This document shows, one piece after another, positions 17,801 to 49,804 of a stretch of 54,908 nt of DNA. Position numbers and translations under genes: made by a program. The stretch is taken from positions 1 to 54,908 of the IMG/VR virus record IMGVR_UViG_3300021197_001056. One strand, written 5' to 3'. Position 1 is the stretch's first letter, and each line of letters begins with the position of its first letter. The notes under the pieces are model-generated. The model did not search any database and had not been told where the DNA came from. It saw only the letters and a program-made list of their open reading frames with translations. This stretch comes from a virus (Duplodnaviria > Caudoviricetes).

Positions 17801-20800
17801 AGTCAGGTAGTGACATAACTTATTCAGCGGAATTAATAGCTGATGTTGGTTATATATACACTGGTGGTAATTTCGGGTTTTTACAAAACCCAGCTGATCA
17901 AGGTGCTATATACAGAGGTGACTACTCTACTATCGCAACACCAGTACCTAACAATGGTGTTAATGACTATACGGATTATAGCTGGGGTTATACTGGGTTT
18001 TCCGAACCTTTAAACAACTCGGAAACTGGCGTGCCTGGTATGTATGCCCAAGCACATTACGGCTGTGACTTGATAACTAGTTCTAATACGAATATGTATC
18101 AGTATGGGTTAATTAGAGATTACTGGGAAGACTACTGGACAGGTTCAACATATGGGGTTGACACTGCTAATAGATGGTTTATTGACCATGCTGGATTTAC
18201 AAAGCCAAACTTCCAAGACCCATCAGCTGAATGGGAACACGCTTACAATCAAGGTATATTCCATACTAACATAGAAGAAATTGGGACGTTGATTGTTTTA
18301 ACTGCTTTTGCTGGTGTTTTAAACAGTAACTTTCAAATTGATCTTGGAGCAAGTGGAAATATAGCCGCTGGCATAATTCCGCAAAATAAAAACACCATAA
18401 TGTTTAGTCACGTTGGTACTGGTTATGGTACTCCTGATGCTGAATTTAAACAGAAGATGACAACTATAGGTCAAAGGTTTAGATTTAAAGCAGACCCTGG
18501 TATGCAAGGTGATCCTATAATATATGAAGTTTGGGCAGTTATTCATAACAACACGAGATCTAGTTACAAAGGTGTTGGGACTTTTAACGGTACCCCAGAG
18601 GGCGTTGGTCCTTACTGTCAAGGTTGTCAAGAAGAAGGTACAGTTGGATCTAGTTGGGCTTGTAAAAGAAAAAGTTTTGTTATATTCTTTAAGCAAACCA
18701 ATAACGATTATCAAGGGCTTGATACTAGTGTTTGGGATCCTAGAAGTGCTGTTAAGCATGATGGTAGTAGTAGTCTTAAAATAGAGTTAGTATCAGCAGC
18801 TGACACTAGTCAATACATTACAACTGTTAACAATATTGATAATGCTATATTTGAAACCGAACCTAAAGAAGATGTAGGTTTAGATTTATATTATGAGGCT
18901 TCAGATGCTATACCATTAAACTTAAATACTAGTACTATAGAAAGCTATATACCTTTGTTTTCTAAAGTTAAAGCTATACAGTCACCAAGCAACACTGCAA
19001 ACATGTATGCTGGTCATTCTTACAATAAAGTGCCTGCTGATGGGATGAACGTTAGTAGTATAGCAAGAGATGTGGTTGGGATCGGAGATGGCGGAATTGA
19101 AGCGATTCCTATACCACTACGTTTAGGCGATAAGTTAGAATTTGAAAGACCTGACGGTACAATAAACTGTGCGTATATTACTGACTATTGGCAACCTATA
19201 CGAAAATCATCCAACTCTAATACTAATAAAAGTAGATATGAAAAATCTACCGTCTATGAGGATGTAGAGTTTCATTTAACCGCAGGGCCTCAGGAAGAAA
19301 GAAAACTTATAATACCGCTAACAACTCTAGGTGGTGTAGATCAATCACGTATTGTAGGTGATATTGATCTTGGTTTTAACCCAGACAGTAATGTAAATTA
19401 TATATGGAAACTAGAAGGCCCAGCGGCTATATCATTAATGGGATTACCTAGTGATAGTCATTTCATTACCGGTAAAGATAACAATATAAACTCTGTAAGT
19501 TTTAATGGAATAGCATTATTTTCAAATTGGGTTTTACCTGAGTCTATAGTTATTCACAATAACACTCTGGATGAGAACGGTAATTTAACTCCATTTTCCT
19601 CTTTCTTTCTTACTTCAGAATCAAGTAGCGCTCAAGTATTTAAAGCTAAAATAACAAGGATAACAGGGTATTATAGACTGGATGACAAGGTGTATGATAC
19701 TACAACTGTGTTACCTTGGTTTAACTGCTATTCTTTTGGAAATGGATTAGAGTCCAATAGAATAAAAGATGATTACAACGCACCGTTTATAAATAATGGT
19801 TTTAAAGTTTCAACTACTTTAGATTCTTATGGTAAAGAGTTTAGAAGTAATGGATTGATACATTCTGGTATATATAATTCAACAAGCGGTGTGAACATGC
19901 TTAATCAATTTAATATGGCAGAGCCTATAACTAAGGATGTTAACCCTTCTTATGGTCCTATACAAGTATTAAAAAGTAGAGATACTAATTTAGTTACTTT
20001 CTGCGAAGACAAAGTGCTACAAATACTAGCTAACAAAGATGCATTATTTAACGCTGACGGTAGTTCTAATTTAGTTTCAACTAATACAGTTCTTGGTAAC
20101 ACCAAAGCTTTTGTTGGAGATTACGGTATATCAAACAATCCTGAGTCACTAGCTGTTGATGGGTATAGAATGTACTTTGTTGATAAACACAGAAATAAAG
20201 TGTTGAGATTGTCACAAGACGGATTAACTGTTATATCAGACTTAGGCATGAAGAGTTGGTTTAGGGACAACTTGCTAAACTCTACTACTATACTTGGTAC
20301 TTTTGATACTGTAAAAGGAAATTACAATATATCAAACTATAGAAATAACTGGACTGTATCGTTCAACGAAAGAAATAAAGGTTGGACTAGTTTTAAGAGT
20401 TTTGTAGCAGATAACGGTTTATCTATAAACGCAGATTACTTAACGTCCAAGGACGGTGACTTATATTTACACCATGTTATAAACAATGGTGATGGACCAG
20501 CGTCAGGGGAGTTTTACGATGAAAAGCAGAATGCTAGTGTGACTATGATATTTAATGATCAACCTAGTATAATAAAAAGTTTCAAAGCTATAAGTTACGA
20601 AGGTACTCAAGCTAGGGTTAAAGAGTTTGTTACTAACATAGCTGTAGATGTTAATGGAAACTTTATATCTAGTGATGGTTTAAATAACGAGGTTAGTGAC
20701 GGTAACTATTACAACTTAGGAAATAAAAACGGTTGGTTTGTTGATCTTATGGAAACCGATGTTGAAGAAATAGAAGTTATAGATTTTCAAAACAAAGAAG

Positions 20801-21774
20801 GTAAATGGTTTACAAACATAGTCGGTAAACCATCGGTTAATGAAGATGAATTAGATTTAAGTGGTCTTCCAACTTCTAACTTTTCTATACAAGGTATCGG
20901 TATAGCATCTAGTATTGAGTCAAGTCCAATACCAGGTTGTATGAGTCCATGTGCTAGTAATTATAATCCTTTAGCTACCACTGATAACGGTAGTTGCGTT
21001 GATAATAATGTCTATGATTGTATGGATCCTTTGTATCAAAACTATAACCCTAATGCAACTATAGATCAAACGAGCTGTGAAGATGTAACTAGCAAATGCT
21101 CAGATCTACATGTCTTAGGTTGTAATGTAGCTTTAAATCTTGCCGGTACTAGAGCAGATGGTGTTAGCCAGTATACTTTTACAACAGCTATAAACGATAA
21201 TCCTCTTGTTACTAAAGATAATGGTGACTGTATAGAGCAAATTGATGGATGTACGAACCCATGGTCTTCTAATTACAATGCGTCTGCTAATTTTGATGAT
21301 GGTACGTGTGTAGAGGTTATTTATGGATGTAAAGATCCAGATGCTTCTAACTACAACCCAGACGCTCAACACAACGCGGTTAATGTTAATGCAAATGGTG
21401 ATCTTTATGGCAATCCTTGCGTATTCGTAGGTTGTATGTTAGAAAATTCTACTAATTACATAGGTATACAGGAGGACGGAACATATCTTTCTTGGGATAG
21501 CTTTACTAGTAGTAAAATAGTACAACACTTTAGTAGCGCTTCAAACCAGTATGTTGATTGGCCTGCTTTTTATAAACCTTGTGATTACGCTGTGGGTGTA
21601 GAATATGATAGTGGTGAAGTGCAATTCCTTGATGAAGCTGACCATAGTTGCTGTGATCTTATTGTTGAAGGTTGTATGGATCCAACAGCTGTAAATTATA
21701 ATCCTGGTGCAAATGTTGATGATGGTACTTGTTCATACTCAGGTCCAACAAATATATTTATTGATGAAATTTAA
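14857..21774 (+). CDS. Tail stabilisation/muzzle (nozzle)-like protein with C-terminal Cys-rich repeats
   Basis: N-terminal GKMNKDLDERLLPQGQYRDAMNI and propeller-like YGISNNPES...YFVD...LRLSQDGLTVISDLGM...WTSFKSF segments, as in P22 gp10/crAss muzzle-like proteins. Confidence 0.7.
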   Translation: MARLTKTFQAGKMNKDLDERLLPQGQYRDAMNIEVTTSDGSDVGVVQSIRGNKKLPSYNEVSDPVAATVNHNGVTSKVVGSVSDDKTNSCYFFIASPEFGFRPMGEEPKVFKDMIVKYDSVSKKIHPVLTDILRYETPNVFLIEEGQGFDFISFNDENKENIKDNIRPGMVAKAFDAVTSTTFDFNFALDYPTSQEMGNGLVVIEVDEYANRIYFDRVIPNTPAEDSSSITNDKISHWIFTHPEPVLQFQEFLSSNETAYVQGFESRIENKQITGINIVDNLLLWTDGLSEPKKVNIDRLTNGLGKNIPRFSTHSKNLARDPYSDNPKQLKTLSQIEDPGNYLGLGVIDTITRDHITVIKKAPRNAVKLIMSNSSTSIDGTATTANCTHDFVNVYPGSEAQGVAISENFVEGSELVFTAMNNAYASVRASVTSVNNNVYTLDVHSVNNNITYSQVGEYVSWHVSLIQTDPMFSDKIGRFSYRYKYYDNECSTFAPWSELAFLPSKYDYTPIKGYNLGMTNNLRKLRVVDFVNEYVSRPDDVKEIDILFKDTTSPNVYVVKTIKRGKDFEWHNMLGTSTGFDGSGAKGVLDITTEMIHRTLESSQILRAWDNVPITAKAQEVTGNRLVYANYEQGYDVINDIVVDSQVITTHHPGIDNEDLSLSPFKSLKSMRKYKLGVVFGDKYGRETPVIGVGGSYNEEFEVDPETLEPNSSSENYVHESFTVKKDKCARLNKIKAKLKWGGGNSNAEPEPWMDYYKFYIKETSNEYYNLVMDRWYNNDDGTIWISFSSADRNKVDEDTYLILKKAHDSQTPVLNDDAKYKVLSISNEAPDYIKKVDKIIGVTPLDMTANVNLSELLSAQIVGESWLGSGIGAIASGARSFEGVGWARIKGVSAGATPSEVLYSEWRRVSNINAQSYSVSVTEPWGLRADMETDYGFGDGASVDYFVEVKDSVIENKPEFDGKFFVKIHKDSTLEQQVTIQSGSDITYSAELIADVGYIYTGGNFGFLQNPADQGAIYRGDYSTIATPVPNNGVNDYTDYSWGYTGFSEPLNNSETGVPGMYAQAHYGCDLITSSNTNMYQYGLIRDYWEDYWTGSTYGVDTANRWFIDHAGFTKPNFQDPSAEWEHAYNQGIFHTNIEEIGTLIVLTAFAGVLNSNFQIDLGASGNIAAGIIPQNKNTIMFSHVGTGYGTPDAEFKQKMTTIGQRFRFKADPGMQGDPIIYEVWAVIHNNTRSSYKGVGTFNGTPEGVGPYCQGCQEEGTVGSSWACKRKSFVIFFKQTNNDYQGLDTSVWDPRSAVKHDGSSSLKIELVSAADTSQYITTVNNIDNAIFETEPKEDVGLDLYYEASDAIPLNLNTSTIESYIPLFSKVKAIQSPSNTANMYAGHSYNKVPADGMNVSSIARDVVGIGDGGIEAIPIPLRLGDKLEFERPDGTINCAYITDYWQPIRKSSNSNTNKSRYEKSTVYEDVEFHLTAGPQEERKLIIPLTTLGGVDQSRIVGDIDLGFNPDSNVNYIWKLEGPAAISLMGLPSDSHFITGKDNNINSVSFNGIALFSNWVLPESIVIHNNTLDENGNLTPFSSFFLTSESSSAQVFKAKITRITGYYRLDDKVYDTTTVLPWFNCYSFGNGLESNRIKDDYNAPFINNGFKVSTTLDSYGKEFRSNGLIHSGIYNSTSGVNMLNQFNMAEPITKDVNPSYGPIQVLKSRDTNLVTFCEDKVLQILANKDALFNADGSSNLVSTNTVLGNTKAFVGDYGISNNPESLAVDGYRMYFVDKHRNKVLRLSQDGLTVISDLGMKSWFRDNLLNSTTILGTFDTVKGNYNISNYRNNWTVSFNERNKGWTSFKSFVADNGLSINADYLTSKDGDLYLHHVINNGDGPASGEFYDEKQNASVTMIFNDQPSIIKSFKAISYEGTQARVKEFVTNIAVDVNGNFISSDGLNNEVSDGNYYNLGNKNGWFVDLMETDVEEIEVIDFQNKEGKWFTNIVGKPSVNEDELDLSGLPTSNFSIQGIGIASSIESSPIPGCMSPCASNYNPLATTDNGSCVDNNVYDCMDPLYQNYNPNATIDQTSCEDVTSKCSDLHVLGCNVALNLAGTRADGVSQYTFTTAINDNPLVTKDNGDCIEQIDGCTNPWSSNYNASANFDDGTCVEVIYGCKDPDASNYNPDAQHNAVNVNANGDLYGNPCVFVGCMLENSTNYIGIQEDGTYLSWDSFTSSKIVQHFSSASNQYVDWPAFYKPCDYAVGVEYDSGEVQFLDEADHSCCDLIVEGCMDPTAVNYNPGANVDDGTCSYSGPTNIFIDEI
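20935..21735 (+). repeat. GC(M/T)DPxAxNYNPxAxxDDGxC protein repeats in the muzzle C-terminus
   Basis: GCMSPCASNYNPLATTDNGSC, DCMDPLYQNYNPNA, GCTNPWSSNYNASANFDDGTC, GCKDPDASNYNPDA, GCMDPTAVNYNPGANVDDGTC. Confidence 0.85.
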
Positions 21775-34400: not shown

Positions 34401-37400
34401 AGGCGAAAGTAAAAAACTTACTGCGAAAGAATTTTTAGAACTAGATAAACAAAAGTTAGATTTTCTAGAAAAAATGTTCGAAGATATTAAAAAGCATTTA
34501 AAGAAAAATCCTAACGACGCTTGGTTTTTTGCTAGGTGGGTTACTGACGCTAGTAGTAATCAAAGCTCTATATTTAGAACGTCAGCTCCAGTAATTGGAT
34601 TCTACTATAAAGATGGTAAACTACACTACAATGTTAAGTTAAGAGAAGAACATAGTACACCTCAAAATAATATTGGTACAATGTTCTTAGGCGCTGCGAT
34701 AAACGGTGAGTCAATATCGGATGTCGGCAAAGTGGCTAGAGCTTCTTTTGTTCAACTTTCTCTTACTCATGAACATGATGATATGCTTAAAGCCATTAAA
34801 GATAAGGATGGTAATATTATAAGGCAAAGCTTGGAGGCTAATATGCCTGATGAATATTGGAGCGAAGTTGTACCAAATATTCTTAATGGTAACTTGGATT
34901 GGTTAGATCTTGGTATGGCTGCTATGATTAGATATGCTAGAGCTGGGGTTAACTTAAATGAGTATATCGTACCTGGTTTAGGTAAGACTATAACGGAGTA
35001 TTTTGGGGTTGGAGTTGATATGTCTAAGTTAAACCCTAAGCAAGTTGAAGCTTTAGTTGAGATTCAAAATGATTTAATATCAGATATATTAACAGGTAAG
35101 ATAACTAGAAAAGTAGCTTCAGATCATATAGAAGCTTCAAGAAAATTAGATTTCAAGTCTAGTAAAGATGATATTAAAGCTTTAAAGAATTACAAGGTAG
35201 CTAAAGATAAGATAAGCGCTAGCATGAACGGTAAAACTAGAGGTATGTCTACGTTTGACTTTGACGAAACTCTTATTATAGGTGGTGATAATTTTGTGAT
35301 TGCTACCGATCCAGATACTGGACACGAAGTTAAAATAAGCTCTGAGCAATGGCCGGTTCAAGGACCTGAATTAGCCGCAGCAGGGTATAAGTTTGATTTC
35401 TCTGATTTTGCTAATGTGCGTGGTGGAAAGGAAGGACCATTACTTCAAAAGATGAAGAATCAAATAGAGAAGTATGGACCTAACAACGTATTTATATTAA
35501 CAGCTAGACAGCAAGCTTCGGCTGTGCCTATCCATAGATGGTTAAAGTCTAAAGGTATAAATATACCCTTGAGAAATATAACAGGTCTAGGTAAGAGCGA
35601 AGGATCTGCTAAAGCAGATTGGATGTTACAAAAGTATGCTGAAGGATATAACGACATGTACTTTGTTGATGATGCAATGTCTAACGTTAAAGCTGTTAAA
35701 GATGTACTAGATCAATTAGATATTAAATCTAAGGTTGTACAAGCTAAGATTAATTTTAGTGAAAGTGGTAGTGATACGTTTAACGAAATGTTAGATAGAA
35801 ATACTGGCGTACCTAAAGAGAAGATATTTTCTGATGCTCAAGCTAGATTAAGAGGTAAGAAAGCTGGAGGATTTAGATTTTTTGTTCCACCATCTGCTGA
35901 GGATTTTAAAGGTTTACTATACAACTTTTTAGGTAAAGGCAAACAAGGAGACGCTGACATGGCTTTCTTTAAAGAGCATTTGTTAGATCCATTTGCTAAA
36001 GGAATTCGTGATATAAATTCCACTAAGCAAAGAACATCTGAAGAGTATAAGGAACTTAGAAAGAAGATGCCTGAAGTAGCTAAGCGTTTAAATAAAAAAA
36101 TACCTAACTCTGACTACAGTGTTGGTGACGCTATGAGGGTGTATCTCTGGAGTAATAATGGAATAGAAATACCAGGTATCTCAGAGCAAGAGGTTTCATT
36201 TTTATCTGATCACATCAATGGAGATGGTAAACTAAAATCTTTTGCAGACGCTTTAGGTAAAATATCTAGATCTAAAAACGGTTATGTTAAGCCTGGTGAA
36301 AATTGGGTTGTTGGTAGTATAGCCTCTGATCTACATGAACAGACTAGCGAGGTGAATAGAGCTGAGTTATTATCTGAGTGGAAAGCTAATAGAGATATTA
36401 TATTCTCTCCTGAGAATATGAATAAAATAGAAGCCGTTTACGGTACAGACTTTAGAGATGCTCTAGAGAACATGCTAGAGCGTATGGAGACTGGTAGTAA
36501 CAGGACTACTGGTAAAAAAGATAAAGTTGTTAATAGTTTTATGGACTGGATAAATGGATCTGTAGGTGCTGTTATGTTCTTCAATACTAGGTCAGCAGTA
36601 CTACAAACTTTATCCATGGTTAACTTTATAAACTGGGGAGATAATAATATATTTCAAGCTGGTAAGGCTTTTGCTAACCAACCTCAATATTGGAAAGACT
36701 TTCTAACTCTGTTCAACTCAGATATGTTAAAGCAACGTAGAGCTGGTATGGCTATTGATGTTAACTTAGCTGAACTTAGTAACGCTGTTTCCAAGGCTAG
36801 TGGTAAAGAAAAAGCTAAAGCAGCTATTAGGTATTTACTTCAAATTGGTTTTACACCTACACAGATTGCGGATAGTTTTGCTATAGCAGCTGGTGGTTCT
36901 ACGTTTTATAGAAATAGAACAAACAAGTATATTAAAGAGGGATTGAGTCAAAAGGAAGCTGAAACTAAAGCTTTTGATGACTTTCAAGAGATAGCAGAGG
37001 AAACACAACAATCTTCTAGGCCTGATCTCATATCTCAACAACAGGCTGGTGCATTAGGTAGATTAGTGTTAGCATGGCAAAATACTCCAATGCAGTATAC
37101 TAGATTAACTAAGAAAGCAATATCAGATTTAGTTAACGGTAGAGGTGACTGGAAGCAAAACGTTTCAAGAATACTATACTACGGTGCAGCGCAAAATATT
37201 ATATTCGGTAGTTTGCAAACTGGCTTAGCTTTCTTAATGTTCGGTGGAGATGAAGATGAAGAGAAGACTAAAACTAAGACAACTCGTGTAGCTAATGGAG
37301 CTTTAGATACCTTACTAAGAGGTACGGGTGTTTATGGTGCTATGGCTTCTACTCTTAAGAACGTGATTATGAAATACGCTGACGAGAGAAAAAAGCCTTA

Positions 37401-38100
37401 CGGTAAAAGAGAGTTATCTAAAGTAGGCATCGAGGCTATGCAGTTATCTCCACCTATTGGTAGTAAAATTAGAAAGATTATGTCAGCTATCTATAGCTAT
37501 GAGTATAATTTGGGTGTACCAGAAAAAATAGGATGGAATATAAATAACCCTATACTAAATGTTATTAGTAGTGCTGTTGAAGCCGTAACTAACGTCCCAC
37601 TAGATAGAGGTGTTAGGAAAGCTCAAAATTTAGACGAAGCTATAAATGGTAATCACGAAATGTGGAAACGTGTAGCTTTGTTCTTAGGTTGGGATAAGTG
37701 GGGTTTAAGTATTAAAAATGAAGAGTTAGAAGAAGCAAAAGCAGAGGTTAAAGAAGAGAGAGCTGAAAAGAAAAAGAAAGAGAATGAAGCTAAGAAAGAA
37801 GAAAAGAAGAGGTTAAAAGAAGAAGAAAACGAAAAAGAAAAGAAAGAGAAGGAAGCTCAAGGTATCAAAGAGGTAAGATGTTCTGGTATTAAATCAAATG
37901 GTAAAAGATGTAGTATAAAAATAGAGACTAAAGAAAAAAAAGTTTTATGTGGTTATCATAAAACATATAAAGAAGGTGAAGCTAGTGATAGAGACGGTGA
38001 TGGGGTTAAAGAATATAGATGTACTGGCACAACTGGATCAGGTAAAAGGTGTAAGAATAGAACAGAAAGAACAAACAAGAAATGTTACGCACACCAGTAA
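28459..38100 (+). CDS. Giant multidomain (polyvalent) virion/ejection protein: zincin, HAD phosphatase and C-terminal CCCH fingers
   Basis: 3213 aa; HEFLH at 32107; HAD motifs FDFDET (35254), ILTAR, K, YFVDD; two C-x10-C-...-C-xx-H units at the C-terminus. Confidence 0.75.
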   Translation: MLDIIKEYQWTNPETGLKELIDVNVNSIEGKKWLENEGVNAILTSADTPETGNQSGDATVDASATSTTPASNQEVVQPQNNQQENTGSASVDTSLDSQNLTEVVKPTTKEMDESTRLMTTYKNEDENSEDFYNRITPQVTTKKQSVGGGHGAAYDMEVTNTTINGITKTDNSLGGSASYLDINGNEATDDQIKTFEELFLLNQIHSEANEIRSTKAGDYSELSDSEIINQQGGKWDIYNKEQEVSDKVQSEMRTNKLDSSFDYDYQSHLEWEQQQYVDGLTKHSAAENAKLNTQYNKERQAVANEILPVIQDQIQQKYSGQLKEIETGLVDTYNKRFDVYQKSTLASYEKLAKKAKTQKEIDKINSDYQRDLKAWWDGEQPKLQDEYSRLVNETYGDAMKKDLNSALNNNEQIVALDESWQSEFEEAQNNIYENYKNNYKPESKHFSEEDFERISRDLDKAGFDVANSSEKKYMLQKYLSNLEKVQGGTPEDIEEIKNEFYAHYYDKLESQPIVDASGKVVIDEKTGEPKTELTQFVMKDIATATLNNAQELYDKEIKKYKEIRYVDKRLRDEPEIVITPEQQLFKDNPGLEQAMRYSRQILDNPESAHPAGAVNFFRGMGSLEGHKYIPFAGGLIDLGNSLEIKALADKAAAGETTPMEDSALQMYLLKNQSDAQVRKLSTAYNAGAMFAESAPFMAEMVITSGAFNTTKQVVQQGVKKALTKSIDKVAGTQVAKSLRFKKGTGKMLFAPKNNAYKVVDNVGDAIGGILATVAQTTANPQRYLAGAIDNMTPEMAWAYTNNADDLISKLDLDIAVKGEGDSFPKAFAKSFGTAWSEYATERMGWLVPGLGKAGLKKLGVTQSPEWLKRASLGRYLRKNGLHKTEAIKHFIQTRSGWNGVLGEMSEEFMNIPLSNLINGHDLTEGLDWPSIKEMGISISAGGLAFGGGTMLYNKAAGNKAPGYYIDLQRFENEKAAIAHLKKMKKNGTLNENTDIEITNDFQAYDNVSKVLEEAGLSNDIIKTGGSGVNAGHIAAAEVEFMNELSQEDRNELESIDGEIKKLEADKGDVNQRDNTDHKEVHAINENIKKLNRRRESILEPVKAKVKQFKTDIYEKKLNNLRKILGEDKYDEVVTEANSQDEVNAMLEQAVAESNGLTKQGDQWVNNKGEVVDISEAVKSGQNKHGGFYVDENTGKKKIFINREASLGESGNVDVGSHEFLHYFLSETLHHHPELKLAFGKALQSHVFNIDPRQIRDTGFRNRLIGYQKRGDVVSMEETLNILSDAMANGTYQHNETALTKLGDIIRRTMSSFGVRVNFGNGRDVFNFIKDYNKEFESGKLSKGMKATMKKGVKVSGQIQDLAESEQKRLKTDVKALNKGIRKVIPDWQDLSVQEAVDARMVFSESATKKTPKESPLEAINKLLPKNIKTNQDYQDFTQDQREFPKLYSELMQPGGVINNYIRSRQTSKEEGDKMLDEAMMRLINFKPENKRKDGSPVGIEGFGEFIFANTRFAKLVAKKKLFEESEELKRKVSTDTEQAKQIADTPTPTDQAPAKGDKAPVRTNVLKVSGVESKAEDIKKMVDIKEGEDIDFKGVTSKYSGKAAEMIFGVPASKITDPKKNLTYAKKIVDGIPEPSEAGNIQKFYTSKDNVRKLLRILKNSNVTSEQAYVNKIGESIDVARGVTGRSIGLKGVPLKYFFEPVLTEKGTRARSKGLTSQTPLWRLKPKFRGNVSNEVVAEVQRDFGITPTGQLNKYDRGIGQLLKGIANYQADQTVLSAAQRNLEEARSKADVEGKKAIGEQIANITAAQSKLAFSENFSEEQVKAAVMNQNAVVSTSKLLKIAGLPNYLADRAAKAIIKRSDGKEVKHVDYNYIVAREAGKEARSDKTIGEEVTRITQALHKMDPVYSTLFKIGMSNGWGKSFFGVNSKFDELSKIPKEELEALPPFLTRFMYHEKELLNPKRVVEENGEIYYIVGNLKKKGESKKLTAKEFLELDKQKLDFLEKMFEDIKKHLKKNPNDAWFFARWVTDASSNQSSIFRTSAPVIGFYYKDGKLHYNVKLREEHSTPQNNIGTMFLGAAINGESISDVGKVARASFVQLSLTHEHDDMLKAIKDKDGNIIRQSLEANMPDEYWSEVVPNILNGNLDWLDLGMAAMIRYARAGVNLNEYIVPGLGKTITEYFGVGVDMSKLNPKQVEALVEIQNDLISDILTGKITRKVASDHIEASRKLDFKSSKDDIKALKNYKVAKDKISASMNGKTRGMSTFDFDETLIIGGDNFVIATDPDTGHEVKISSEQWPVQGPELAAAGYKFDFSDFANVRGGKEGPLLQKMKNQIEKYGPNNVFILTARQQASAVPIHRWLKSKGINIPLRNITGLGKSEGSAKADWMLQKYAEGYNDMYFVDDAMSNVKAVKDVLDQLDIKSKVVQAKINFSESGSDTFNEMLDRNTGVPKEKIFSDAQARLRGKKAGGFRFFVPPSAEDFKGLLYNFLGKGKQGDADMAFFKEHLLDPFAKGIRDINSTKQRTSEEYKELRKKMPEVAKRLNKKIPNSDYSVGDAMRVYLWSNNGIEIPGISEQEVSFLSDHINGDGKLKSFADALGKISRSKNGYVKPGENWVVGSIASDLHEQTSEVNRAELLSEWKANRDIIFSPENMNKIEAVYGTDFRDALENMLERMETGSNRTTGKKDKVVNSFMDWINGSVGAVMFFNTRSAVLQTLSMVNFINWGDNNIFQAGKAFANQPQYWKDFLTLFNSDMLKQRRAGMAIDVNLAELSNAVSKASGKEKAKAAIRYLLQIGFTPTQIADSFAIAAGGSTFYRNRTNKYIKEGLSQKEAETKAFDDFQEIAEETQQSSRPDLISQQQAGALGRLVLAWQNTPMQYTRLTKKAISDLVNGRGDWKQNVSRILYYGAAQNIIFGSLQTGLAFLMFGGDEDEEKTKTKTTRVANGALDTLLRGTGVYGAMASTLKNVIMKYADERKKPYGKRELSKVGIEAMQLSPPIGSKIRKIMSAIYSYEYNLGVPEKIGWNINNPILNVISSAVEAVTNVPLDRGVRKAQNLDEAINGNHEMWKRVALFLGWDKWGLSIKNEELEEAKAEVKEERAEKKKKENEAKKEEKKRLKEEENEKEKKEKEAQGIKEVRCSGIKSNGKRCSIKIETKEKKVLCGYHKTYKEGEASDRDGDGVKEYRCTGTTGSGKRCKNRTERTNKKCYAHQ

Positions 38101-39688: not shown

Positions 39689-39925
39689 ATGAGAAAATAC
39701 GTTATAATAGATAAAGAGGATGTAGACGATATTAATTTTTCTTACGTATTAGAGAATGGTAAAGATTCTTTAGTATACAATATTGATGGCACTAAAACTT
39801 TTGTGAAGTTTATTGGTGATACTCCATCTTTCTTAGAAGGAAAGGCTACTCTTACAAATGAAGAAATATTAACTATACTCAATAACCCTTCTAACGGTTG
39901 GGTAGAACAGAATGGAAATATTTAA
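39689..39925 (+). CDS. Hypothetical protein (partner of the lectin gene)
   Basis: 78-aa acidic ORF starting 1 nt after the previous stop. Confidence 0.6.
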   Translation: MRKYVIIDKEDVDDINFSYVLENGKDSLVYNIDGTKTFVKFIGDTPSFLEGKATLTNEEILTILNNPSNGWVEQNGNI

Positions 39926-40124
39926 GAACGATAACAATTGGAATGAGAAAGCTATAGTAGGATTTATAGCTTTTGCTATAATGTGTCTTATAATGATAGC
40001 TGACCTCGTTACAGGCTGGGTAGGAAGTGATTTAGTAATAAACGAATACGTCTACAACTCATTTGTATGGGTTGTTCTTGGTTCATTTGGAATCTCAGGC
40101 GTAGAAAAATTTGCAAAAAAATAA
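39912..40124 (+). CDS. Small two-TM membrane protein (holin-like candidate)
   Basis: Two hydrophobic helices; GSFGISGVEKFAKK tail. Confidence 0.6.
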   Translation: MEIFKNDNNWNEKAIVGFIAFAIMCLIMIADLVTGWVGSDLVINEYVYNSFVWVVLGSFGISGVEKFAKK

Positions 40125-40262: not shown

Positions 40263-40622
40263 ATGGCTTACTTACAAAAAAACAACCCGTACAAAGTAAC
40301 CAGCTGTGGTAGGCGTAGAACGTTTATGCAGGGTGGAGATCCTGGAGATGACCGCACTAAAGATAACCCTTTCAAAAAGCTTAGAAAAACAACTAAGGGT
40401 AAAGGTAGAAATTTTAGAACCGCGGAAGAGGGTGCTGGTATGACAACTAAAGGCGTAGCTGCTTATAAAAGAGCTAACCCTGGTAGCAAACTTAAAACTG
40501 CTGTAACAGGCAAGGTTAAACCTGGTAGTAAAGCTGCAGGGCGTAGAAAGTCTTTCTGCGCTAGATCAAAGGGTTGGACCGGTGAAAGAGGTAAGGCCGC
40601 AAGAAGAAGATGGAAATGTTAA
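40263..40622 (+). CDS. Highly basic phage protein (RRKSFCAR...RWKC family)
   Basis: GMTTKGVAAYKRANPGSKLK...RRKSFCARS...RRRWKC, a motif recalled from many phage hypothetical proteins. Confidence 0.65.
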   Translation: MAYLQKNNPYKVTSCGRRRTFMQGGDPGDDRTKDNPFKKLRKTTKGKGRNFRTAEEGAGMTTKGVAAYKRANPGSKLKTAVTGKVKPGSKAAGRRKSFCARSKGWTGERGKAARRRWKC

Positions 40623-40637
40623 ATTAAATATATATAT

Positions 40638-42884
40638 ATGAGAAAAATACTTTTACTATTACTAATTGTGTCTGGTAGCTTAAACGCTCAAGACACTTTA
40701 TATGACTGCTTAGGATCTGATGTTACAGAAGTATCAGGTTGGTTGGGAGACGGATGGTGCGATGATGGAGCGTATACTTATAACGGTGTGCCAGTTTACT
40801 TCGACTGTGAAGAATTTAATTATGATGAAGGGGATTGTGAAGCGCCTATAGATACAGTACCTGGTTGTACTGATGTATTAGCTTTAAACTTCGTTCCTGA
40901 AGCAAACTTTAACGACGGTAGTTGTGAGTATCCTATATTCGGTTGCATCGACCCTGAAGCACCGAACTATAACCCTTGGGCAGAAGCAGATGATGGCAGC
41001 TGTGTTGGAATAAGTTGTTCTGACGGAGAGGCCAAAATTATTTTACAGCTAACACTAGATCAGTACCCGGGTGAGACTGGTTGGATTATAACTGGCCTAT
41101 CAAATGGTCAAGCTGTAGATAACGTAGTAGCTGGTGAGTACACATACGAGCAGGCTAATCAAACTATCGTATACGATATATGTATACCAGAAACTGGAGT
41201 TGAAATAATACTTAGCGACATATATGGAGATGGTATGGCTGGTTCACAGTGGGGTGGAACAGATGGTAATATAGTTGTACTTGGTGATGCGGAGCCTTGT
41301 GGTAGTTTAGATACTTTATGGGCTTTAGATTCTGCTGACTTTGGTAATGCAGCTTACTCTGGTCCTATATGGTTAGAGCAATGTGATGTTCCCTTAGTTG
41401 AGGGTTGCACAAATAATACTTATGTAGAGTTTAGCCCACAGGCTAACCTTGACGATGGTAGTTGTGAGACGTTGCATGCTTTAGGATGTGTAAACCCTAG
41501 TGCTTTCAACTATGATTCACTTGCTACATTGAATGCTATAATACCTACTTGTAACTACACTTTAATTATTGAAGATGATGGTGGTGACGGTTGGGGTGAT
41601 TGCTATATAGGTGTTGTGCAAGAAGATTCTATTCTTGGTACTTATACAATGGGACCTGGTCCTTACTCTCAAGAGTTTAACTTAGTATTAGAAACAGATA
41701 AACCAGTTAAGGTTTATTACTTTGAAATAGCTAACCCACAAACTCCTCCCGCTGAGGTTGCGTTTCAAACAATGCACAACTCGTTTAGATTAATAAATTC
41801 AGCTGGTGATATTACCCTACAAGGTGGTACGTATCCTTTTGCTGACAATGGTGGCGGGGCTTTACAATCTTATTCTCCTCCTTTCTGGCATATATATCAT
41901 GCACTACCTTTCTGTGGTGATTACTGTATACCTAAAGTGTATGGTTGTTTAGATGAGTCAGCTTTAAACTATAACGACTTAGCTAATACAGATGACGGTA
42001 GTTGTGTTGATGTAATTGTAGGATGTACAAATGAGTTAGCTTTCAACTATGATTCACTTGCTAACGTTGACAGTGGTGGATGTGTAGCTATAACTGTTGG
42101 GTGTATGGATGACTTTGCTTGGAACTACAACGCTTTAGCAAACGTGGCTGACGAGTCTTGTATATACTTTGGTTGTATGGATCCGGTTGCTGACAACTAC
42201 GATCCGCAAGCAAATGTAGACAACGGTAGTTGTTTTATAACTATATTAGGCTGTACAGATCCAGATGCGTTTAATTATAATGATCAGGCTAACACAGATG
42301 ACTTCTCTTGTATCCCAGTTGTTTATGGATGTCTTGATCCATTAGCATTCAATTGGGACTCTCTAGCTAACACAGATAACAATTCATGTATTGAGGTTGT
42401 AGAAGGATGTATGGATGGTGAAGCTTTTAATTATGATGTGTTCGCTAACACTGAGGATGGTGGATGTTTGTATGACGCTGGTTGTGTAGGTGAACCTGGT
42501 GATCCTTACTGGTTAAATGATTCTTGTTATGCTTGGGTTATTACTGTTGATCCATATTGTTGTAACAACGAGTGGGATCAGAAATGCCAACAACTATATT
42601 GGAGGTGTTATGAAGATAATGACATGGATGTTAGAGATTTAATGAGGTCTAACAGTGTTGCTATATGGCCTGTACCCGCTAAAGACATACTTAACATATT
42701 AACAAAGGAACCTGTAGATATTAAAGTTCATGATCTAACTGGTAAACTTGTTATACATGTTAAAGAAAAGTATACCAGCGAAGGGTTAAACCAACTAAAC
42801 GTATCTAACCTATCTAGTGGGGTATACAACTTTAGTATAACGTGTAATAATAATACTATAACTAGACAAGTTATTAAGCAATGA
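40638..42884 (+). CDS. Secreted Cys-rich repeat protein with T9SS type A C-terminal sorting domain
   Basis: Sec signal MRKILLLLLIVSGSLNA|Q; LNR-like WLGDGWCD...YDEGDC; about 11 GCxDxxAxNY repeats; CTD IWPVPAKDILNI...IKVHDLTGKLV...LNVSNLSSGVYNFSI...TRQVIKQ. Confidence 0.85.
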   Translation: MRKILLLLLIVSGSLNAQDTLYDCLGSDVTEVSGWLGDGWCDDGAYTYNGVPVYFDCEEFNYDEGDCEAPIDTVPGCTDVLALNFVPEANFNDGSCEYPIFGCIDPEAPNYNPWAEADDGSCVGISCSDGEAKIILQLTLDQYPGETGWIITGLSNGQAVDNVVAGEYTYEQANQTIVYDICIPETGVEIILSDIYGDGMAGSQWGGTDGNIVVLGDAEPCGSLDTLWALDSADFGNAAYSGPIWLEQCDVPLVEGCTNNTYVEFSPQANLDDGSCETLHALGCVNPSAFNYDSLATLNAIIPTCNYTLIIEDDGGDGWGDCYIGVVQEDSILGTYTMGPGPYSQEFNLVLETDKPVKVYYFEIANPQTPPAEVAFQTMHNSFRLINSAGDITLQGGTYPFADNGGGALQSYSPPFWHIYHALPFCGDYCIPKVYGCLDESALNYNDLANTDDGSCVDVIVGCTNELAFNYDSLANVDSGGCVAITVGCMDDFAWNYNALANVADESCIYFGCMDPVADNYDPQANVDNGSCFITILGCTDPDAFNYNDQANTDDFSCIPVVYGCLDPLAFNWDSLANTDNNSCIEVVEGCMDGEAFNYDVFANTEDGGCLYDAGCVGEPGDPYWLNDSCYAWVITVDPYCCNNEWDQKCQQLYWRCYEDNDMDVRDLMRSNSVAIWPVPAKDILNILTKEPVDIKVHDLTGKLVIHVKEKYTSEGLNQLNVSNLSSGVYNFSITCNNNTITRQVIKQ

Positions 42885-43963
42885 TAGAAAAAAATAAAGC
42901 TTTACTGTATCAATTGTTAAGTGCAGTAGGATTAGTAGTAGTATTTAGTTTTTTATTTATAGCTTTGACTCAAAGCTGTAATGCTCAAGGTAGAATACTA
43001 AAATACTCAACGTTTTATACCGCTATAAACGGTGGTACATCATTATCAGACGATCAAGTATGGTCGATAACATCAGGTCAGCTAGAAGAGGATGTCATTG
43101 AAACTCCATTTGATTATACCTTATCTATAGGTTTAAGAAAAATTAAGAGATTCGGATACGAGAACAGGGCAAATACATTTTATAATGGTACTGAAAATTC
43201 ATACTCAGACGCAGCGACATTAGGTCGGTTAGATGGTTTCGAATATTTATTTGAAACTGATCTTGTGAGGAGGTTAGGCGTTCATTATGTAAACCATAAT
43301 CACTTTGTAAGATATGTTGCAGATAAGTGGGTAGCTAAAGTAGCGTACTTAGAAGATGGCTTTGCTGATATTAAATACTTTGAGGCATCTCAGAGATACA
43401 GAAAACAAATTGGTGAGGGTAAGTTATCTTTTAATATAGGTACTGTTCAGAGATTAGCTGAGCCTTACGGGTTTGATCCGCTAGCTGATTGGGTGTTAGA
43501 TAATGGTACACTACATTACACGTACTTAGCATTACAAGAAGGTTACAACATAACACTTGACGGAATGTATTACTCACCTGACGGCACATTAGTGGCTGAT
43601 AACCAAGCTGTGTGGGAGGAAGTTGTTATACCTGGAGTTATAGACGACTACGTTGAGAGCCAAAGAAGCAATTTGTCTAGTATCGTTGAATACTCTACAG
43701 TTATAGGTTTAGACTACTACCACTTTACAAAAGACTTTTGGTTTCACACTTGGGGAAACTTACTACCTTATCATTTAGATACAGATAATAAATACTCTTA
43801 CCACAAACTTAATAATGGACAGTGGGTTGATTACTCAGCTGGTTTAATATTTGGTTACAGATTTAACAAGAGCTTAGGATGTTTTGTTGAGGGGAAGTAT
43901 AATAAGTATTGGAATAGAAAATGGCACAACTTTAGTGTTGGAATTAATTACGTAATATTTTAG
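42881..43963 (+). CDS. Putative outer-membrane beta-barrel protein
   Basis: Signal peptide ending CNA|Q; Tyr/Trp-rich amphipathic strands; terminal FSVGINYVIF beta-signal ending in Phe. Confidence 0.65.
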   Translation: MIEKNKALLYQLLSAVGLVVVFSFLFIALTQSCNAQGRILKYSTFYTAINGGTSLSDDQVWSITSGQLEEDVIETPFDYTLSIGLRKIKRFGYENRANTFYNGTENSYSDAATLGRLDGFEYLFETDLVRRLGVHYVNHNHFVRYVADKWVAKVAYLEDGFADIKYFEASQRYRKQIGEGKLSFNIGTVQRLAEPYGFDPLADWVLDNGTLHYTYLALQEGYNITLDGMYYSPDGTLVADNQAVWEEVVIPGVIDDYVESQRSNLSSIVEYSTVIGLDYYHFTKDFWFHTWGNLLPYHLDTDNKYSYHKLNNGQWVDYSAGLIFGYRFNKSLGCFVEGKYNKYWNRKWHNFSVGINYVIF

Positions 43964-43965
43964 AC

Positions 43966-44334
43966 ATGTATAAACAAAAAGGAATTGATTTTGGTGTTGG
44001 TACTGGAAGCTCACCATTAAACAAAAACGGTGACCCAAAGAAAAAGAAAAGCTTTGACTTAAAAGGTTATGTTAAAGGAGAGCAAGGTTACATCCCTGAT
44101 TACAAAGGTAAACCTACTAGGCAAGCAGCTAATGAAAGTACACTTTTAAATCCTAAGAGTTCTGACGAACGTCTTTCTGACCAAATGGATACAAAAGAAA
44201 CAGTTAGATTAAGAGGTGAGCAAATAGCAAGAGATAAAGCTGGTAAGAAAACTTCAAAAGCAGAAGCTGCTCATTTAAAATCCTATTTAGATAAGGATAA
44301 AAAAGTAAGACCGAATCGAAAAGATAGATACTAA
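43966..44334 (+). CDS. Basic hypothetical protein
   Basis: MYKQKG...SSPLNK N-terminus; Lys rich. Confidence 0.6.
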   Translation: MYKQKGIDFGVGTGSSPLNKNGDPKKKKSFDLKGYVKGEQGYIPDYKGKPTRQAANESTLLNPKSSDERLSDQMDTKETVRLRGEQIARDKAGKKTSKAEAAHLKSYLDKDKKVRPNRKDRY

Positions 44335-44618
44335 TGACAAAAGAATTAAACGAAGATACATCAGTACAGGTAAGCATAAAAACTTTAGCTGGTATAGGTG
44401 TTGTTATGGCAGCTGTAATTAGTGGTTGGTTCGTACTACAAGGAGATATAGCAGAGGCTAAGAAATTACCTTTACCTCCAGACCCTGAAATAACACGCAT
44501 GGAGTATGACATGAAAGATCAACTGATAAGGCAAACTATAATGTCGACACAAGAAGACGTTACTGATATTAAAAATCAGATGATAAGAATGGAAGATAAG
44601 ATAGACAAACTAAAATAG
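44334..44618 (+). CDS. Single-TM protein with C-terminal coiled coil
   Basis: LAGIGVVMAAVISGWFVL helix, PLPPDP linker, heptad C-terminus. Confidence 0.65.
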   Translation: MTKELNEDTSVQVSIKTLAGIGVVMAAVISGWFVLQGDIAEAKKLPLPPDPEITRMEYDMKDQLIRQTIMSTQEDVTDIKNQMIRMEDKIDKLK

Positions 44619-44623
44619 TATGT

Positions 44624-44986
44624 ATGATAAAATTACTTACGTTGTTAGCTTTTATAACGCTAGATGCATACGCACAGTATGTACCTGAGCGTAATGCTAA
44701 AAATGTAAGTAGAGTTTTATCCGCAGCCTCTGAATTTGCTTTAGCGCAAGACAAGCAACTACATATGGGAGCTTGTTACTTTTTAAGTTCTATCACCTCA
44801 GCTGTGGTGTATAATAAGACTAGAAATAAAAAAAAGGCTAGCGTATATGGGTTTGGTATAGCTATGTTAGCCGGTATCGCAAAAGAAGTATACGACATTA
44901 ACCACGGTCACTCAGATATAAATGATATACTAGCAAATACTATAGGATCTAGTTTAGGTGTTGTAACAATTAGAATAACATTATGA
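44624..44986 (+). CDS. Exported/membrane protein, YfiM/VanZ-like (DKxxH...KExxD...D...N)
   Basis: Signal AYA|Q; QDKQLH, GIAKEVYD, DILANTIG. Confidence 0.6.
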   Translation: MIKLLTLLAFITLDAYAQYVPERNAKNVSRVLSAASEFALAQDKQLHMGACYFLSSITSAVVYNKTRNKKKASVYGFGIAMLAGIAKEVYDINHGHSDINDILANTIGSSLGVVTIRITL

Positions 44987-45321
44987 GAAAATTAATTTTA
45001 CTATTATCAATATTAACTACAACATGTTTTGCACAAGATTTTCCTAGTGGTTTAGTAGTTGTAGAGTTCAACGCTAGCTTTAACAAATCTAACGAGGTAC
45101 AGTGGTTATCTAAACTATCCGACTGTAAAGTTCAAAGAGTGGATATATCAGCAGATTCTAGATGGTCAAGTGAATACAAAATAGTAGTAGTGCCTACGTT
45201 AGTTGTATTTAATAACAACGAAGAAGCAAAAAGATTTCAAGCAAACATCATGATGACAATGGAGGCTACTCGTAGAGAGGTTCAGGAGTCAATTGATGAA
45301 ATTACAATGGAAGCATTTTAA
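44983..45321 (+). CDS. Exported thioredoxin-fold protein lacking CxxC
   Basis: Signal CFA|Q; VVVEFNASFN in place of FxAxWCxxC; RVDI; YKIVVVPTLVVFNNNEEAKRF (cis-Pro loop). Confidence 0.7.
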   Translation: MRKLILLLSILTTTCFAQDFPSGLVVVEFNASFNKSNEVQWLSKLSDCKVQRVDISADSRWSSEYKIVVVPTLVVFNNNEEAKRFQANIMMTMEATRREVQESIDEITMEAF

Positions 45322-47884: not shown

Positions 47885-48247
47885 ATGAGTAAATTTACAA
47901 ATATTTCAACCGCTACCACAACAACAATACTACAAGCTAGCGATCATGCTTTAAGTAGTGCTAACAGTTTAGTGGGTTCAAAGTTCTTTAGTGTAAATAA
48001 AATATCAATAACTAACTATAGCCAGAGAGATGCTAAGGTAGTTTTATATCAACATGGTCAAACTGTTAATAGCGTTACATATGATGATTATTACATTATA
48101 GGTGATGCAAACTTGGACATTGGTATAAAAATACCGGGTGGAGTTACTTTAGTTTTAGACGACCCTTTTACTATAAATTTAATTACTCATATATTAAAAA
48201 TAACAAATTCAGGAACCGATCCTGCTTTAACAATAAGAATAGATTAA
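47885..48247 (+). CDS. Hypothetical beta-rich protein
   Basis: 120-aa ORF coupled to the endolysin (TAATG). Confidence 0.55.
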   Translation: MSKFTNISTATTTTILQASDHALSSANSLVGSKFFSVNKISITNYSQRDAKVVLYQHGQTVNSVTYDDYYIIGDANLDIGIKIPGGVTLVLDDPFTINLITHILKITNSGTDPALTIRID

Positions 48248-48705
48248 TGAGACTAAGCAAAAATTTTACGTTATCAGAAATAACAAAAAGTAACACAGCT
48301 AAAAGACTAGGTATAAATAATGCGCCGGATAAAGAACACCTTAAAAATATGCAAATTCTTATTAGAGATCTTATACAGCCTATGCGTGACGATCTTGGTC
48401 CTATCAGGATTACTAGTGGTTACCGTAACCCAACACTCAATCGCACCATTGGTGGATCTACTAAAAGCCAACACTGTAAAGGTCAGGCAGTGGATATACA
48501 ATTCTGGGAGAAGGGTGAAATGTGTAATAAAAAAATCTATGACTGGGTTCTCAAACAAGGGATAGAGTTTGATCAAATGATCAACGAATTTGATTTTGCT
48601 TGGATACATATATCACTTAGACCAGATGATAAAAACCGTAAGGTAGTTTTAGAGGCATACAAAGATAATGACGGAGATACAGCTTACAAGGTAGCTGACG
48701 TTTAA
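48247..48705 (+). CDS. Endolysin, peptidase M15 (Zn D-Ala-D-Ala peptidase fold)
   Basis: LSKNFTLSE, ITSGYR, SQHCKGQAVDI, WIHIS zinc ligands. Confidence 0.88.
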   Translation: MRLSKNFTLSEITKSNTAKRLGINNAPDKEHLKNMQILIRDLIQPMRDDLGPIRITSGYRNPTLNRTIGGSTKSQHCKGQAVDIQFWEKGEMCNKKIYDWVLKQGIEFDQMINEFDFAWIHISLRPDDKNRKVVLEAYKDNDGDTAYKVADV

Positions 48706-49759: not shown

Positions 49760-49804
49760 TAAAAAAAAAGGGGATAACTATTTAGCTATCCCCTTTATTT
49801 TTTT
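49758..49804. terminator. Bidirectional intrinsic terminator between convergent gene arms
   Basis: A9-GGGGATA...TATCCCC-TTTATTTTTTT; T tracts on both strands. Confidence 0.88.

Follow-up and report, generated by a model that had tools for sequence, protein, structure and literature searches.

A predicted, enzyme-free type IX secretion cargo encoded beside lysis-linked envelope genes in phages of probable marine Flavobacteriia

The T9SS (type IX secretion system) builds the surface coat, the gliding adhesins and many of the secreted enzymes of Bacteroidota. This study concerns a phage gene predicted to supply a cargo to that system, located at 40638..42884 on the plus strand of the virus record IMGVR_UViG_3300021197_001056; the window analyzed here is the whole of that IMG/VR record (54,908 nucleotides, linear, approximately 84% complete). 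A phage-encoded T9SS cargo is, as an idea, already in print, since the 'Cryophage' was described with three T9SS type A genes and a host system that is presumably hijacked (Bellas et al. 2020, Nat Commun, PMC7468147). As far as the accessible text of that report goes, the Cryophage resembles the present case in being a phage genome that encodes proteins with T9SS type A sorting domains, and its cargo is highly variable between variants; as cargo, however, it has an endoglucanase, GH39 and PA14, enzymes or toxin-like domains of a freshwater/glacial phage, whereas the window cargo is predicted to be a non-catalytic Cys-repeat fiber that forms part of a very large marine family and has a fixed site beside a trio of envelope genes and lysis genes. 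Both the window cargo and the Cryophage cargos are known from genes alone. On gut contigs of Bacteroidota phages (crAss-BACON cluster 2), T9SS sorting domains likewise occur in open reading frames (ORFs; de Jonge et al. 2019, PMC6949934), one of which combines the domain with repeats of a carbohydrate-binding type; they differ in that the BACON repeats lie near head genes, and the available portion of that paper does not describe a function, a barrel partner or a lysis context.

Lambda Lom, Llp of T5 and Cor are phage surface-remodeling or exclusion proteins. Like the barrels of huge phages, they are comparable in being phage proteins in or on the host outer membrane, for which receptor masking has been proposed or shown. 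Beta-barrels encoded by phages are by now recognized as common; a 2026 preprint counts 1,603 phage barrels, including outer-membrane barrels of huge phages, and in the part of its text that could be searched the terms 'T9SS' and 'type IX' have 0 occurrences (bioRxiv 10.64898/2026.10.24.761521). Lom, Llp, Cor and the huge-phage barrels are not known to use the T9SS, whereas the window cargo does by prediction.

The original prediction, made from the letters of the window, had read the gene as a phage gene for a complete T9SS substrate, and its span was reproduced exactly: an ORF with an ATG start encodes 748 residues, consisting of a Sec leader, a Cys-rich passenger of non-catalytic type and a T9SS type A C-terminal sorting domain (CTD), and each motif that had been named sits at its expected position. 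The CTD (residues 676-748 of 748, at the extreme C-terminus; 42663..42881, plus strand) was proposed for scoring against the two sorting-domain models, and it lies above the cut-off for both, with 47.6 bits against PF18962 (cut-off 27; residues 676-746 aligned to profile positions 1-74 of 75) and, for TIGR04183, 43 bits (cut-off 23; the whole model covered, positions 1-72 of 72), while a six-frame search scored it at 52.3 bits. Also found as claimed, in a domain of about 75 residues, were WPVP (position 677) in place of the family consensus YPNP, DLTGK (699), SGVY (727) and a terminal VIKQ. In the AlphaFold2 model the domain forms 7 strands with a block pLDDT (predicted local distance difference test) of approximately 73-89, and its Foldseek matches include the CTDs of NucA, RemA, mirolase, RgpB and PorZ (5m11 among them), all at probability 1.00. 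The closest structures were 8glk_D, the NucA CTD bound in the translocon (template-modeling score, TM, 0.79; root-mean-square deviation 2.4 A), 8gl6_D, the RemA CTD (TM 0.75), 8qb1 (TM 0.68) and 7pq4, RgpB (TM 0.63). By sequence alone, the family profile of the cargo matches the solved CTD chains 8glk_D (2.4e-7) and 8glj_D and the gingipain 5hfs. The architecture of a leader, a passenger and a CTD of about 75 residues (TM 0.63-0.79) is that of the host cargos NucA and RemA of F. johnsoniae and RgpB of P. gingivalis, from which the window cargo differs in being virus-encoded and in having WPVP for YPNP.

A signal peptide had also been claimed, and a leader is present at residues 1-17 (40638..40688, plus strand), read by inspection as MRKILLLLLIVSGSLNA followed by QD, with predicted cleavage between LNA and Q. 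The residue at +1, Gln18, is invariant in 43 of 43 aligned family sequences, and nearly all complete homologs carry similar leaders. Because of this invariant Gln, the leader fits the Q-rule for signal peptidase I substrates of Bacteroidetes, as set out in the accessible text of PMC5837995 and PMC10653852; the same argument has been applied to phage proteins in a paper on P. gingivalis phages, as far as the available part of that source shows. Three neighboring gene products discussed below (an outer-membrane barrel, a thioredoxin-fold protein and a YfiM-like protein) also read Ala-Gln at the predicted end of their leaders.

The family alignment comprises 43 complete viral ORFs, of which 38 match PF18962 at E<=0.001. 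A homolog in locus L047 (L047:9593-12394) was left out for an internal stop; its C-terminus is unlike a CTD, and a pseudogene or a sequencing error is possible. One explanation would hold that the terminal domain is merely Ig-like and that the protein is a virion decoration or fiber, or a periplasmic protein, not exported by the T9SS. DUF3244-type Ig domains do rank among the top Foldseek fold matches of the CTD, 5 of the 43 members have no full CTD, and the Cys-loop repeats of the passenger recur in a protein of the virion block. This explanation is nevertheless considered highly improbable: a conserved Sec leader with an invariant Gln at +1 is incompatible with cytoplasmic virion assembly, the CTD scores 20 bits above both cut-offs with the whole model covered, no PHROG structural family matches the protein, and its gene lies outside the virion block among genes for exported proteins. 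By every sequence and fold criterion applied, the protein is a complete predicted T9SS type A substrate, and it is very probably a T9SS cargo.

That the gene belongs to a phage, as had been stated, was borne out by the virus record itself and by its content. The window encodes a large terminase (phrog_6681, 3e-169) and a portal protein (8e-137), together with a ribonucleotide reductase and structural proteins of the virion. Residence of a T9SS sorting-domain gene in a bona fide phage genome is documented by 58 syntenic viral loci and by complete genomes; contamination or a chimeric contig was excluded as an origin of the gene by synteny across the 58 viral loci and by complete genomes with terminal repeats. 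Relatives of the terminase were found in 87 deposited phage records, 86 of which name a host genus (Flavobacterium 68, Cellulophaga 15, Tenacibaculum 2 and Maribacter 1), the remaining one being an unclassified Caudoviricetes record. Of 101 genomes sampled from the Flavobacteriales-type order around a Crocinitomicaceae metagenome-assembled genome (MAG), 100 encode the SprA_N domain of the translocon, against 0 of 14 controls. The suggestion that the phage hijacks the T9SS of its host was thus upheld for its components, namely a phage gene, a complete type A substrate and a translocon in the likely host group; predicted use of the host T9SS is accordingly the best reading of the sequence data.

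The passenger is modular. Its N-terminal module (residues 18-70; 40689..40847) contains the stretch GDGWCD...FNYDEGDC, with WLGDGWCD at position 35, and is variable or absent in distant members. LNR modules have six Cys, form three disulfides and bind calcium. The stretch had been described as LNR/Notch-like, and the likeness of the motif stands; membership of PF00066 was rejected, with no match for the cargo at E<=1 and none listed at E<=0.001 for any of the 43 members, with 4 Cys only in the stretch, and with residues 12-73 modeled at a pLDDT below 50. Two Cys-loop repeats (residues 71-125; 40848..41012) lead to beta-sandwich domain 1 (residues 126-250; 41013..41387; block pLDDT approximately 74-89), two further repeats, one of them degenerate (residues 251-300; 41388..41537), lead to beta-sandwich domain 2 (residues 301-430; 41538..41927; block pLDDT approximately 55-86, with dips at residues 365-369 and 402-416), and a stalk of seven repeats follows (residues 431-612; 41928..42473), modeled as short beta hairpins with a block pLDDT of approximately 55-83. 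Between the stalk and the CTD lies a helical base module with 6 Cys, PYWLND.CYAWVI.VDPYCCNNEWD..C (residues 613-660; 42474..42617). All of these features are on the plus strand. The two beta domains, the Cys-repeat stalks and the DPYCC...WDQKC module of the original prediction are all accounted for in this layout: AlphaFold2 shows two beta-sandwiches with DxxGDG-type motifs (DIYGDG at 194 and, within the DDGGDGW loop, DDGGDG at 313), the regular-expression map of the 21-residue unit GC.D..A.NY...AN.D.GSC gives ten clear copies and one degenerate copy, and DPYCC and WDQKC stand at 638 and 646.

The protein contains 40 Cys, 39 of them within the passenger, and is strongly acidic; in the seven-repeat stalk, 32 Asp and Glu face 1 Lys or Arg. 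The AlphaFold2 model, built from the 43 family sequences, is a string of beads in which the individual domains are folded (predicted template-modeling score, pTM, 0.32). Across those sequences, D194, G197, D198 and G199 of the domain 1 loop and D313, G318 and W319 of domain 2 are invariant; the calcium-type character of the loops is putative. Foldseek returned low-probability matches for the beta domains, of tandem C2-like and collagen-binding-like type, and a profile of the core formed by both domains gave nothing significant against PDB sequences. The 675 residues outside the CTD have no match in Pfam, NCBIfam or PHROG, and no catalytic domain was detected in the protein by the same searches.

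A word-indexed search recovered 2,828 relatives at E<=0.001 among 7,999 scored candidates; PF18962 is present in 119 of the best 120, and none of these is named beyond 'hypothetical protein'. A scan of IMG/VR yielded the 58 viral loci with full-length or nearly full-length relatives (34-93% identity). Megablast and tblastn searches of 50,697 deposited phage genomes with the cargo, the barrel and the base module plus CTD yielded one weak repeat match and no cultured carrier. Among the genomes of 185,579 prokaryotic species (one genome each), a scan with exact peptide patterns, which is insensitive to distant relatives, found no full-length cellular homolog and 8 partial matches of at most 33% identity. 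Several of these (Myxococcota, Saprospiraceae) have only the DPYCCNNEWD..C unit in common with the cargo, and tandem copies of the base motif are also present in Cys-rich extracellular proteins from Myxococcota and Bacteroidota. Two others are giant proteins of 4,464 and 4,593 residues with repeats alike at 33% identity; these proteins (L060:2018-15409, 327 Cys; L061:2240-16018, 343 Cys) consist mostly of Cys-loop repeats and come from Bacteroidota MAGs, one of them of the Crocinitomicaceae.

Within the viral family, conservation is uneven. The base module is the most conserved block (mean column conservation 0.80; 56-92% identity to the window in 42 of 42 other rows), whereas the identity of the head, formed by the N-terminal module and both beta domains, falls to about 30%, and the N-terminal module itself ranges from 23 to 92% and is essentially absent (at most 3 aligned residues) in 4 rows. 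In one record the terminase is 79% identical and the cargo 34% identical to those of the window, so that the cargo is swapped or fast-evolving, as would be expected for a gene of surface interaction. The cassette is found in at least 3 kinds of phage genome and in several unrelated lineages: among 10 records that carry it, the terminase is 51-90% identical to that of the window in 4, 24% identical in 1 and without a match in 5, and these 5 include genomes of 110-156 kb, two of them rated 100% complete.

Parts of the passenger are common in host proteins. Of the 401 Flavobacteriales genomes sampled, 388 contain a match to the profile of the beta-domain core, frequently with several matches per genome (best E 6e-30), and the matches span profile positions 2-172 or so, that is, beta domain 1 and the next Cys loop. 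Seven module-bearing host proteins were characterized, comprising three reprolysins, a lysyl oxidase with PKD, a PAD-type deiminase, a sortilin/BNR protein and one protein without a Pfam match; six of the seven have a leader-like N-terminus, and the shared module is mostly C-terminal to the catalytic part (the three reprolysins included) and N-terminal to it in the lysyl oxidase. In place of PF18962, the C-terminus of these proteins has a dockerin-like tail bracketed by Cys. The tail, seen in host loci L077-L084 (e.g., L083:3927-6725, minus strand), follows the pattern GC..C..D.N.DG.V...D.L..L..FG..C and is mostly terminal; the giant proteins of L060 and L061 have similar ends. Judging from these comparisons, beta domain 1 and the Cys loops serve host extracellular proteins as accessory modules without catalytic function, and modules of this kind are all that the phage cargo consists of. 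Because of this composition the passenger is read as a binding protein or fiber and not as an enzyme, and a non-enzymatic binding protein is the likely nature of the cargo.

Cargo with a type A CTD may be either released or anchored. A released cargo could bind algal or particle polysaccharide, or host exopolymer, and act as an auxiliary adhesin that holds infected cells or progeny on a substrate without masking anything; the relation of its modules to those of host secreted enzymes would suit such a role, as would the extra modules of single family members, of MAM type in one and CBM48-like in two. The window cargo itself matches no carbohydrate-binding family in Pfam or NCBIfam, however, and the conserved base beside the CTD looks more like an anchor than like a soluble end, so that this alternative is thought unlikely.

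A module of the cargo recurs in the virion block of the same phage. A BLASTP comparison of the cargo with all ORFs of the window matched a protein of 2,305 residues (14857-21774; E 1.2e-19, 37% identity over 191 residues), the C-terminal end of which carries Cys-loop repeats of the same type as those of the cargo (20782..21744, plus strand). The first 2,000 or so residues of this protein match the 'virion structural protein' of the Cellulophaga phages phi38:1, phi40:1 and Calle and of Flavobacterium elemo phages, and its repeat-bearing end lies outside the matches to named phages. The common module fits a scheme in which the cargo and the virion protein would meet the same surface or ligand, but is no proof of it. 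After the virion genes, the window also encodes a protein of 3,213 residues (28459-38100) with two C-terminal Cys/His motifs, C.G....GKRC......C..H, behind a stretch rich in Lys and Glu. This product is probably a virion protein of the internal or ejected kind.

As read from sequence at every step, the path of the cargo would begin with passage through Sec by means of the leader, followed by signal peptidase I cleavage after LNA, which would expose Gln18. Folding of the passenger, with as many as about 19 disulfides, would take place in the periplasm, the SprA/PorV translocon of the host would recognize the 73-residue type A CTD, and the cargo would be moved to the cell surface, where the CTD would be removed and the mature protein would either stay or be released. 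With its variable head, Cys-loop stalk and conserved helical base, it is most likely a binding protein or fiber displayed on the infected cell. Such display could bring about a late remodeling or masking of the surface, in the manner of lambda Lom, of Llp of T5 or of Cor, by which progeny or rival phages would be kept off infected cells and debris.

Masking is preferred as the role because the head is variable and the base conserved, because the cargo appears to be swapped among related phages and because a module is common to the cargo and a virion protein. It is preferred also because of the link between T9SS or gliding and phage sensitivity and because of the Lom-LamB precedent: in Flavobacterium, phage resistance maps to gliding and T9SS genes, according to the titles and opening lines of abstracts, and masking of LamB by Lom is cited in the accessible text of the 2026 preprint (bioRxiv 10.64898/2026.10.24.761521). 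As the specific role of the cargo, masking or anti-adsorption is nevertheless put forward tentatively. The same tie between T9SS or gliding genes and phage sensitivity, as given in those partial sources, could be taken to favor a further idea of the original prediction, in which the cargo might saturate the translocon and impair gliding or receptor display; in its full form, abundant cargo would saturate or jam the translocon and shut down gliding and the display of host surface proteins. Plausibility is the extent of the case for jamming, given that the cargo is bulky, rich in disulfides and equipped with a bona fide CTD; the sequence contains no feature that separates a jamming protein from ordinary cargo, and a variable, multi-domain passenger of 660 residues would be needless for a decoy. 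Conservation of the head domains in the family argues for a function of the passenger itself, and jamming is regarded as very improbable.

The cargo gene stands in a cassette of small envelope and lysis genes, all on the plus strand. Upstream lies a gene for a 70-residue protein (39912..40124) with two hydrophobic helices (residues 14-30 and 50-64), holin-like by size and topology only and without a family match; it is 87-98% identical in close relatives and present in 41 of the 58 cargo loci. Downstream, the ATG of a 360-residue predicted outer-membrane beta-barrel (42881..43963) overlaps the stop codon of the cargo, and is followed by a 94-residue membrane protein (g94; 44334..44618) with, by inspection, one N-terminal hydrophobic helix at residues 17-35 and then a helical or coiled-coil tail. 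An optional YfiM/DUF2279-like exported protein of 120 residues (44624..44986), found in only some loci, has weak matches to PF10043 (E 1e-5) and NF008028 (E 5e-6), both below cut-off, and to phrog_26616 'lipoprotein'. The next gene (44983..45321) encodes an exported, thioredoxin-fold (Trx-fold) protein of 112 residues with a leader and matches to PF00085 (22.6 bits against a cut-off of 23.5) and TIGR01068 that are weak and below cut-off; CxxC is missing in the window copy and in the 12 orthologs compared, and the protein is predicted to be an inactive thioredoxin. An M15 peptidase endolysin (48247..48705; PF08291, 65.8 bits; phrog_894, 5.5e-37) lies directly after the Trx-fold gene on most related contigs, while in the window a gene for a 653-residue fiber-like protein and small ORFs stand between the two. 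In the 58 cargo loci, the barrel was found in 52, g94 in 53, the Trx-fold protein in 52 and the endolysin in 38, the last usually 1.7-2.3 kb past the cargo gene. The six cargo loci without a barrel comprise three contigs cut inside the cargo, one probably cut upstream and two (L056 and L059) in which the available DNA has no barrel.

Two very basic proteins bracket the cargo-barrel pair: a DUF6321 protein of 119 residues (40263-40622), which many loci likewise encode upstream of the cargo, and a protein of 122 residues (43966-44334) seen in the window only. Scans for sigma-70 promoters and terminators found no signal that sets the cassette apart; the promoter scan gave 31 sites against 45.5 in shuffled sequences, with a pattern that is not of the Bacteroidota type, and the sole strong terminator (49767-49796) closes the long plus-strand block.

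This setting raises a possible part in lysis, in which the cargo, with the barrel, g94 and the Trx-fold protein, would form or trigger a device that breaches the outer membrane in place of spanins. The location of the cargo gene between a holin-like gene and the M15 endolysin, with its stop overlapping the start of the barrel, is in keeping with such a part, as is the finding that no spanin-like lipoprotein was seen. The neighbors resemble spanins (lambda Rz/Rz1) in combining a small inner-membrane protein that has a periplasmic helical domain with an outer-membrane partner beside holin and endolysin genes; they differ in that the outer-membrane partner is a barrel of 360 residues and not a small lipoprotein, and in the added Trx-fold protein. 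By inspection, g94 fits the topology of an i-spanin, and no small lipobox protein adjoins it, which leaves it short of the definition of a two-component spanin.

The assignment of the barrel rests on its leader, its C-terminal ...NYVIF, an AlphaFold2 model of about 14 strands (pLDDT 73.6, pTM 0.65) and the best Foldseek matches of that model, all of which are outer-membrane barrels (NanC, E 2e-6; FapF; autotransporter and invasin domains). The barrel has no Pfam, NCBIfam or PHROG family, nor do its 10 weakest-scoring full-length relatives, and its profile gave nothing significant against PDB sequences. Its identification as PorP/SprF or PorV was rejected, with no model match and with generic barrels best in Foldseek, where FadL came at rank 44. 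An exhaustive profile search of 1.84 billion representatives placed 417 clusters at E<=0.001, the nearest Atlas clusters are 100% viral, and among 401 Flavobacteriales genomes none matched, with a positive control on the record of the window at 1.3e-190. For the distant barrel representatives P0375, P0291 and P0321, no viral locus was found.

In the closest 80 loci seeded from the barrel (57-84% identity), the cargo is present in 78, and the other 2 have at most 65 nucleotides of upstream DNA; in 67 loci seeded from a divergent member of the barrel family, it is present in 61, and all 6 exceptions have no DNA on one side. The cargo thus accompanies the near branch of the barrel in 139 of 147 loci, with both flanks available in none of the 8 exceptions, which speaks for a joint role such as lysis. 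A general rule that the barrel is always paired with the cargo was rejected, however, because in 80 loci seeded from barrels at an intermediate distance (recognized at 1e-49 to 1e-93) neither the CTD nor the base module was matched (0 of 80), although the same hidden Markov models, used as controls on three cargo-linked samples, found the CTD in 49-78 loci and the base module in 55-76. These 80 loci retain g94 (73), the Trx-fold protein (71), the M15 endolysin (33) and the 70-residue protein (25). Since the trio of barrel, g94 and Trx-fold protein is kept without cargo in 80 of 80 loci, its function is independent of the cargo; as judged from these loci, the trio is a fixed unit and the cargo an addition confined to the window's branch of barrels, where the complete coupling may reflect a single acquisition. 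A fast-varying head would also be unexpected in a lysis protein, and a direct part of the cargo in lysis is accordingly judged improbable.

Other exported proteins occupy the cargo-less cassettes. Beside the barrel, 45 of the 80 loci (L229-L308) encode a small exported protein with at least 7 Cys (148-310 residues; e.g., L247:9047-9763, L246:9019-9489 and L260:8981-9424), starting with ...C..CA...G.YCGDD..NWT and ending in ...YNLNGQ.I....G.YIE.GKIKYK.K. The tail of a 9-Cys exported protein was considered as half a CTD and rejected (hhalign 3% over 18 columns; no CTD in a profile search of the PDB). Some cargo-less cassettes also have an exported protein of about 181 residues between the Trx-fold protein and the endolysin (L283:3237-3788, 4 Cys; the same position in L287, L290, L294, L298 and L308), with weak matches (1e-4 to 1e-5) to the profile of the cargo head.

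The cargo could also be the surface subunit of an envelope-spanning assembly built by the phage, comprising a coiled-coil protein in the inner membrane, a periplasmic Trx-fold adaptor, a barrel in the outer membrane and a fiber delivered by the T9SS. The Cys-loop module of the fiber, like that of the virion protein, would then occupy or mask the ligand of the virion, by which progeny would be protected or rivals excluded. If this were true, the T9SS would for the first time be known to serve in the assembly of a phage structure. A complex prediction for barrel residues 36-360 with cargo residues 586-748 (base and CTD) gave scores of 0.00, 0.55 and 0.01, which speak neither for nor against it. 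The assembly is considered a distinctly doubtful possibility, slightly more so than a part in lysis.

On balance, the explanation favored overall is that the gene encodes a cargo of the host T9SS in a phage of marine Flavobacteriia, acting as a surface binding or masking protein. Several points weigh against it. The host group is deduced from the relatives of the terminase. In five members of the family (L043, L048, L050, L054 and L058), a tail of about 45 residues takes the place of the full CTD, and we take these to be the five ORFs that fail PF18962; their tails have no NCBIfam match and hence no type A, B or C sorting model, and export by the T9SS may therefore not be universal in the family. 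The tail follows the pattern ..TDLLGRP....NKLL.YIYSDGS..KKLIKK, and in L043, L048, L054 and L058 the barrel gene is found upstream of the cargo, in L050 downstream of it. The beta domains have low-probability fold matches, and calcium binding by them is putative. The similarities of the cargo and of the 653-residue fiber-like protein to their counterparts in the window are uncoupled (fiber 85% and cargo 61% in L012; fiber 40% and cargo 84% in L002), a mismatch that would weakly argue against co-evolution of the two. Late expression of the cassette is suggested by gene order only. Classical exclusion genes act early, and the cargo gene is among late genes.

In the literature on phages with the T9SS and on phage barrels, no further report of the combination seen here was found, although supplementary gene tables of Bellas et al. 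2020 or of the 2026 preprint could list the family. The window cargo represents a large family of predicted T9SS cargo, enzyme-free and without a name, that was found in full length on viral contigs only and keeps a fixed place next to an envelope trio linked to lysis. Because it is abundant and occurs in several unrelated phage lineages, the family is a good, defined test case, and a secretion assay in a model flavobacterium could use the CTD of the window cargo (residues 661-748) as it stands. Marine flavobacteria are major degraders of algal polysaccharides, and if their phages routinely use the T9SS, infected cells would carry virus-specified surfaces; if true, adsorption, superinfection and the attachment of cells to particles would all be affected.

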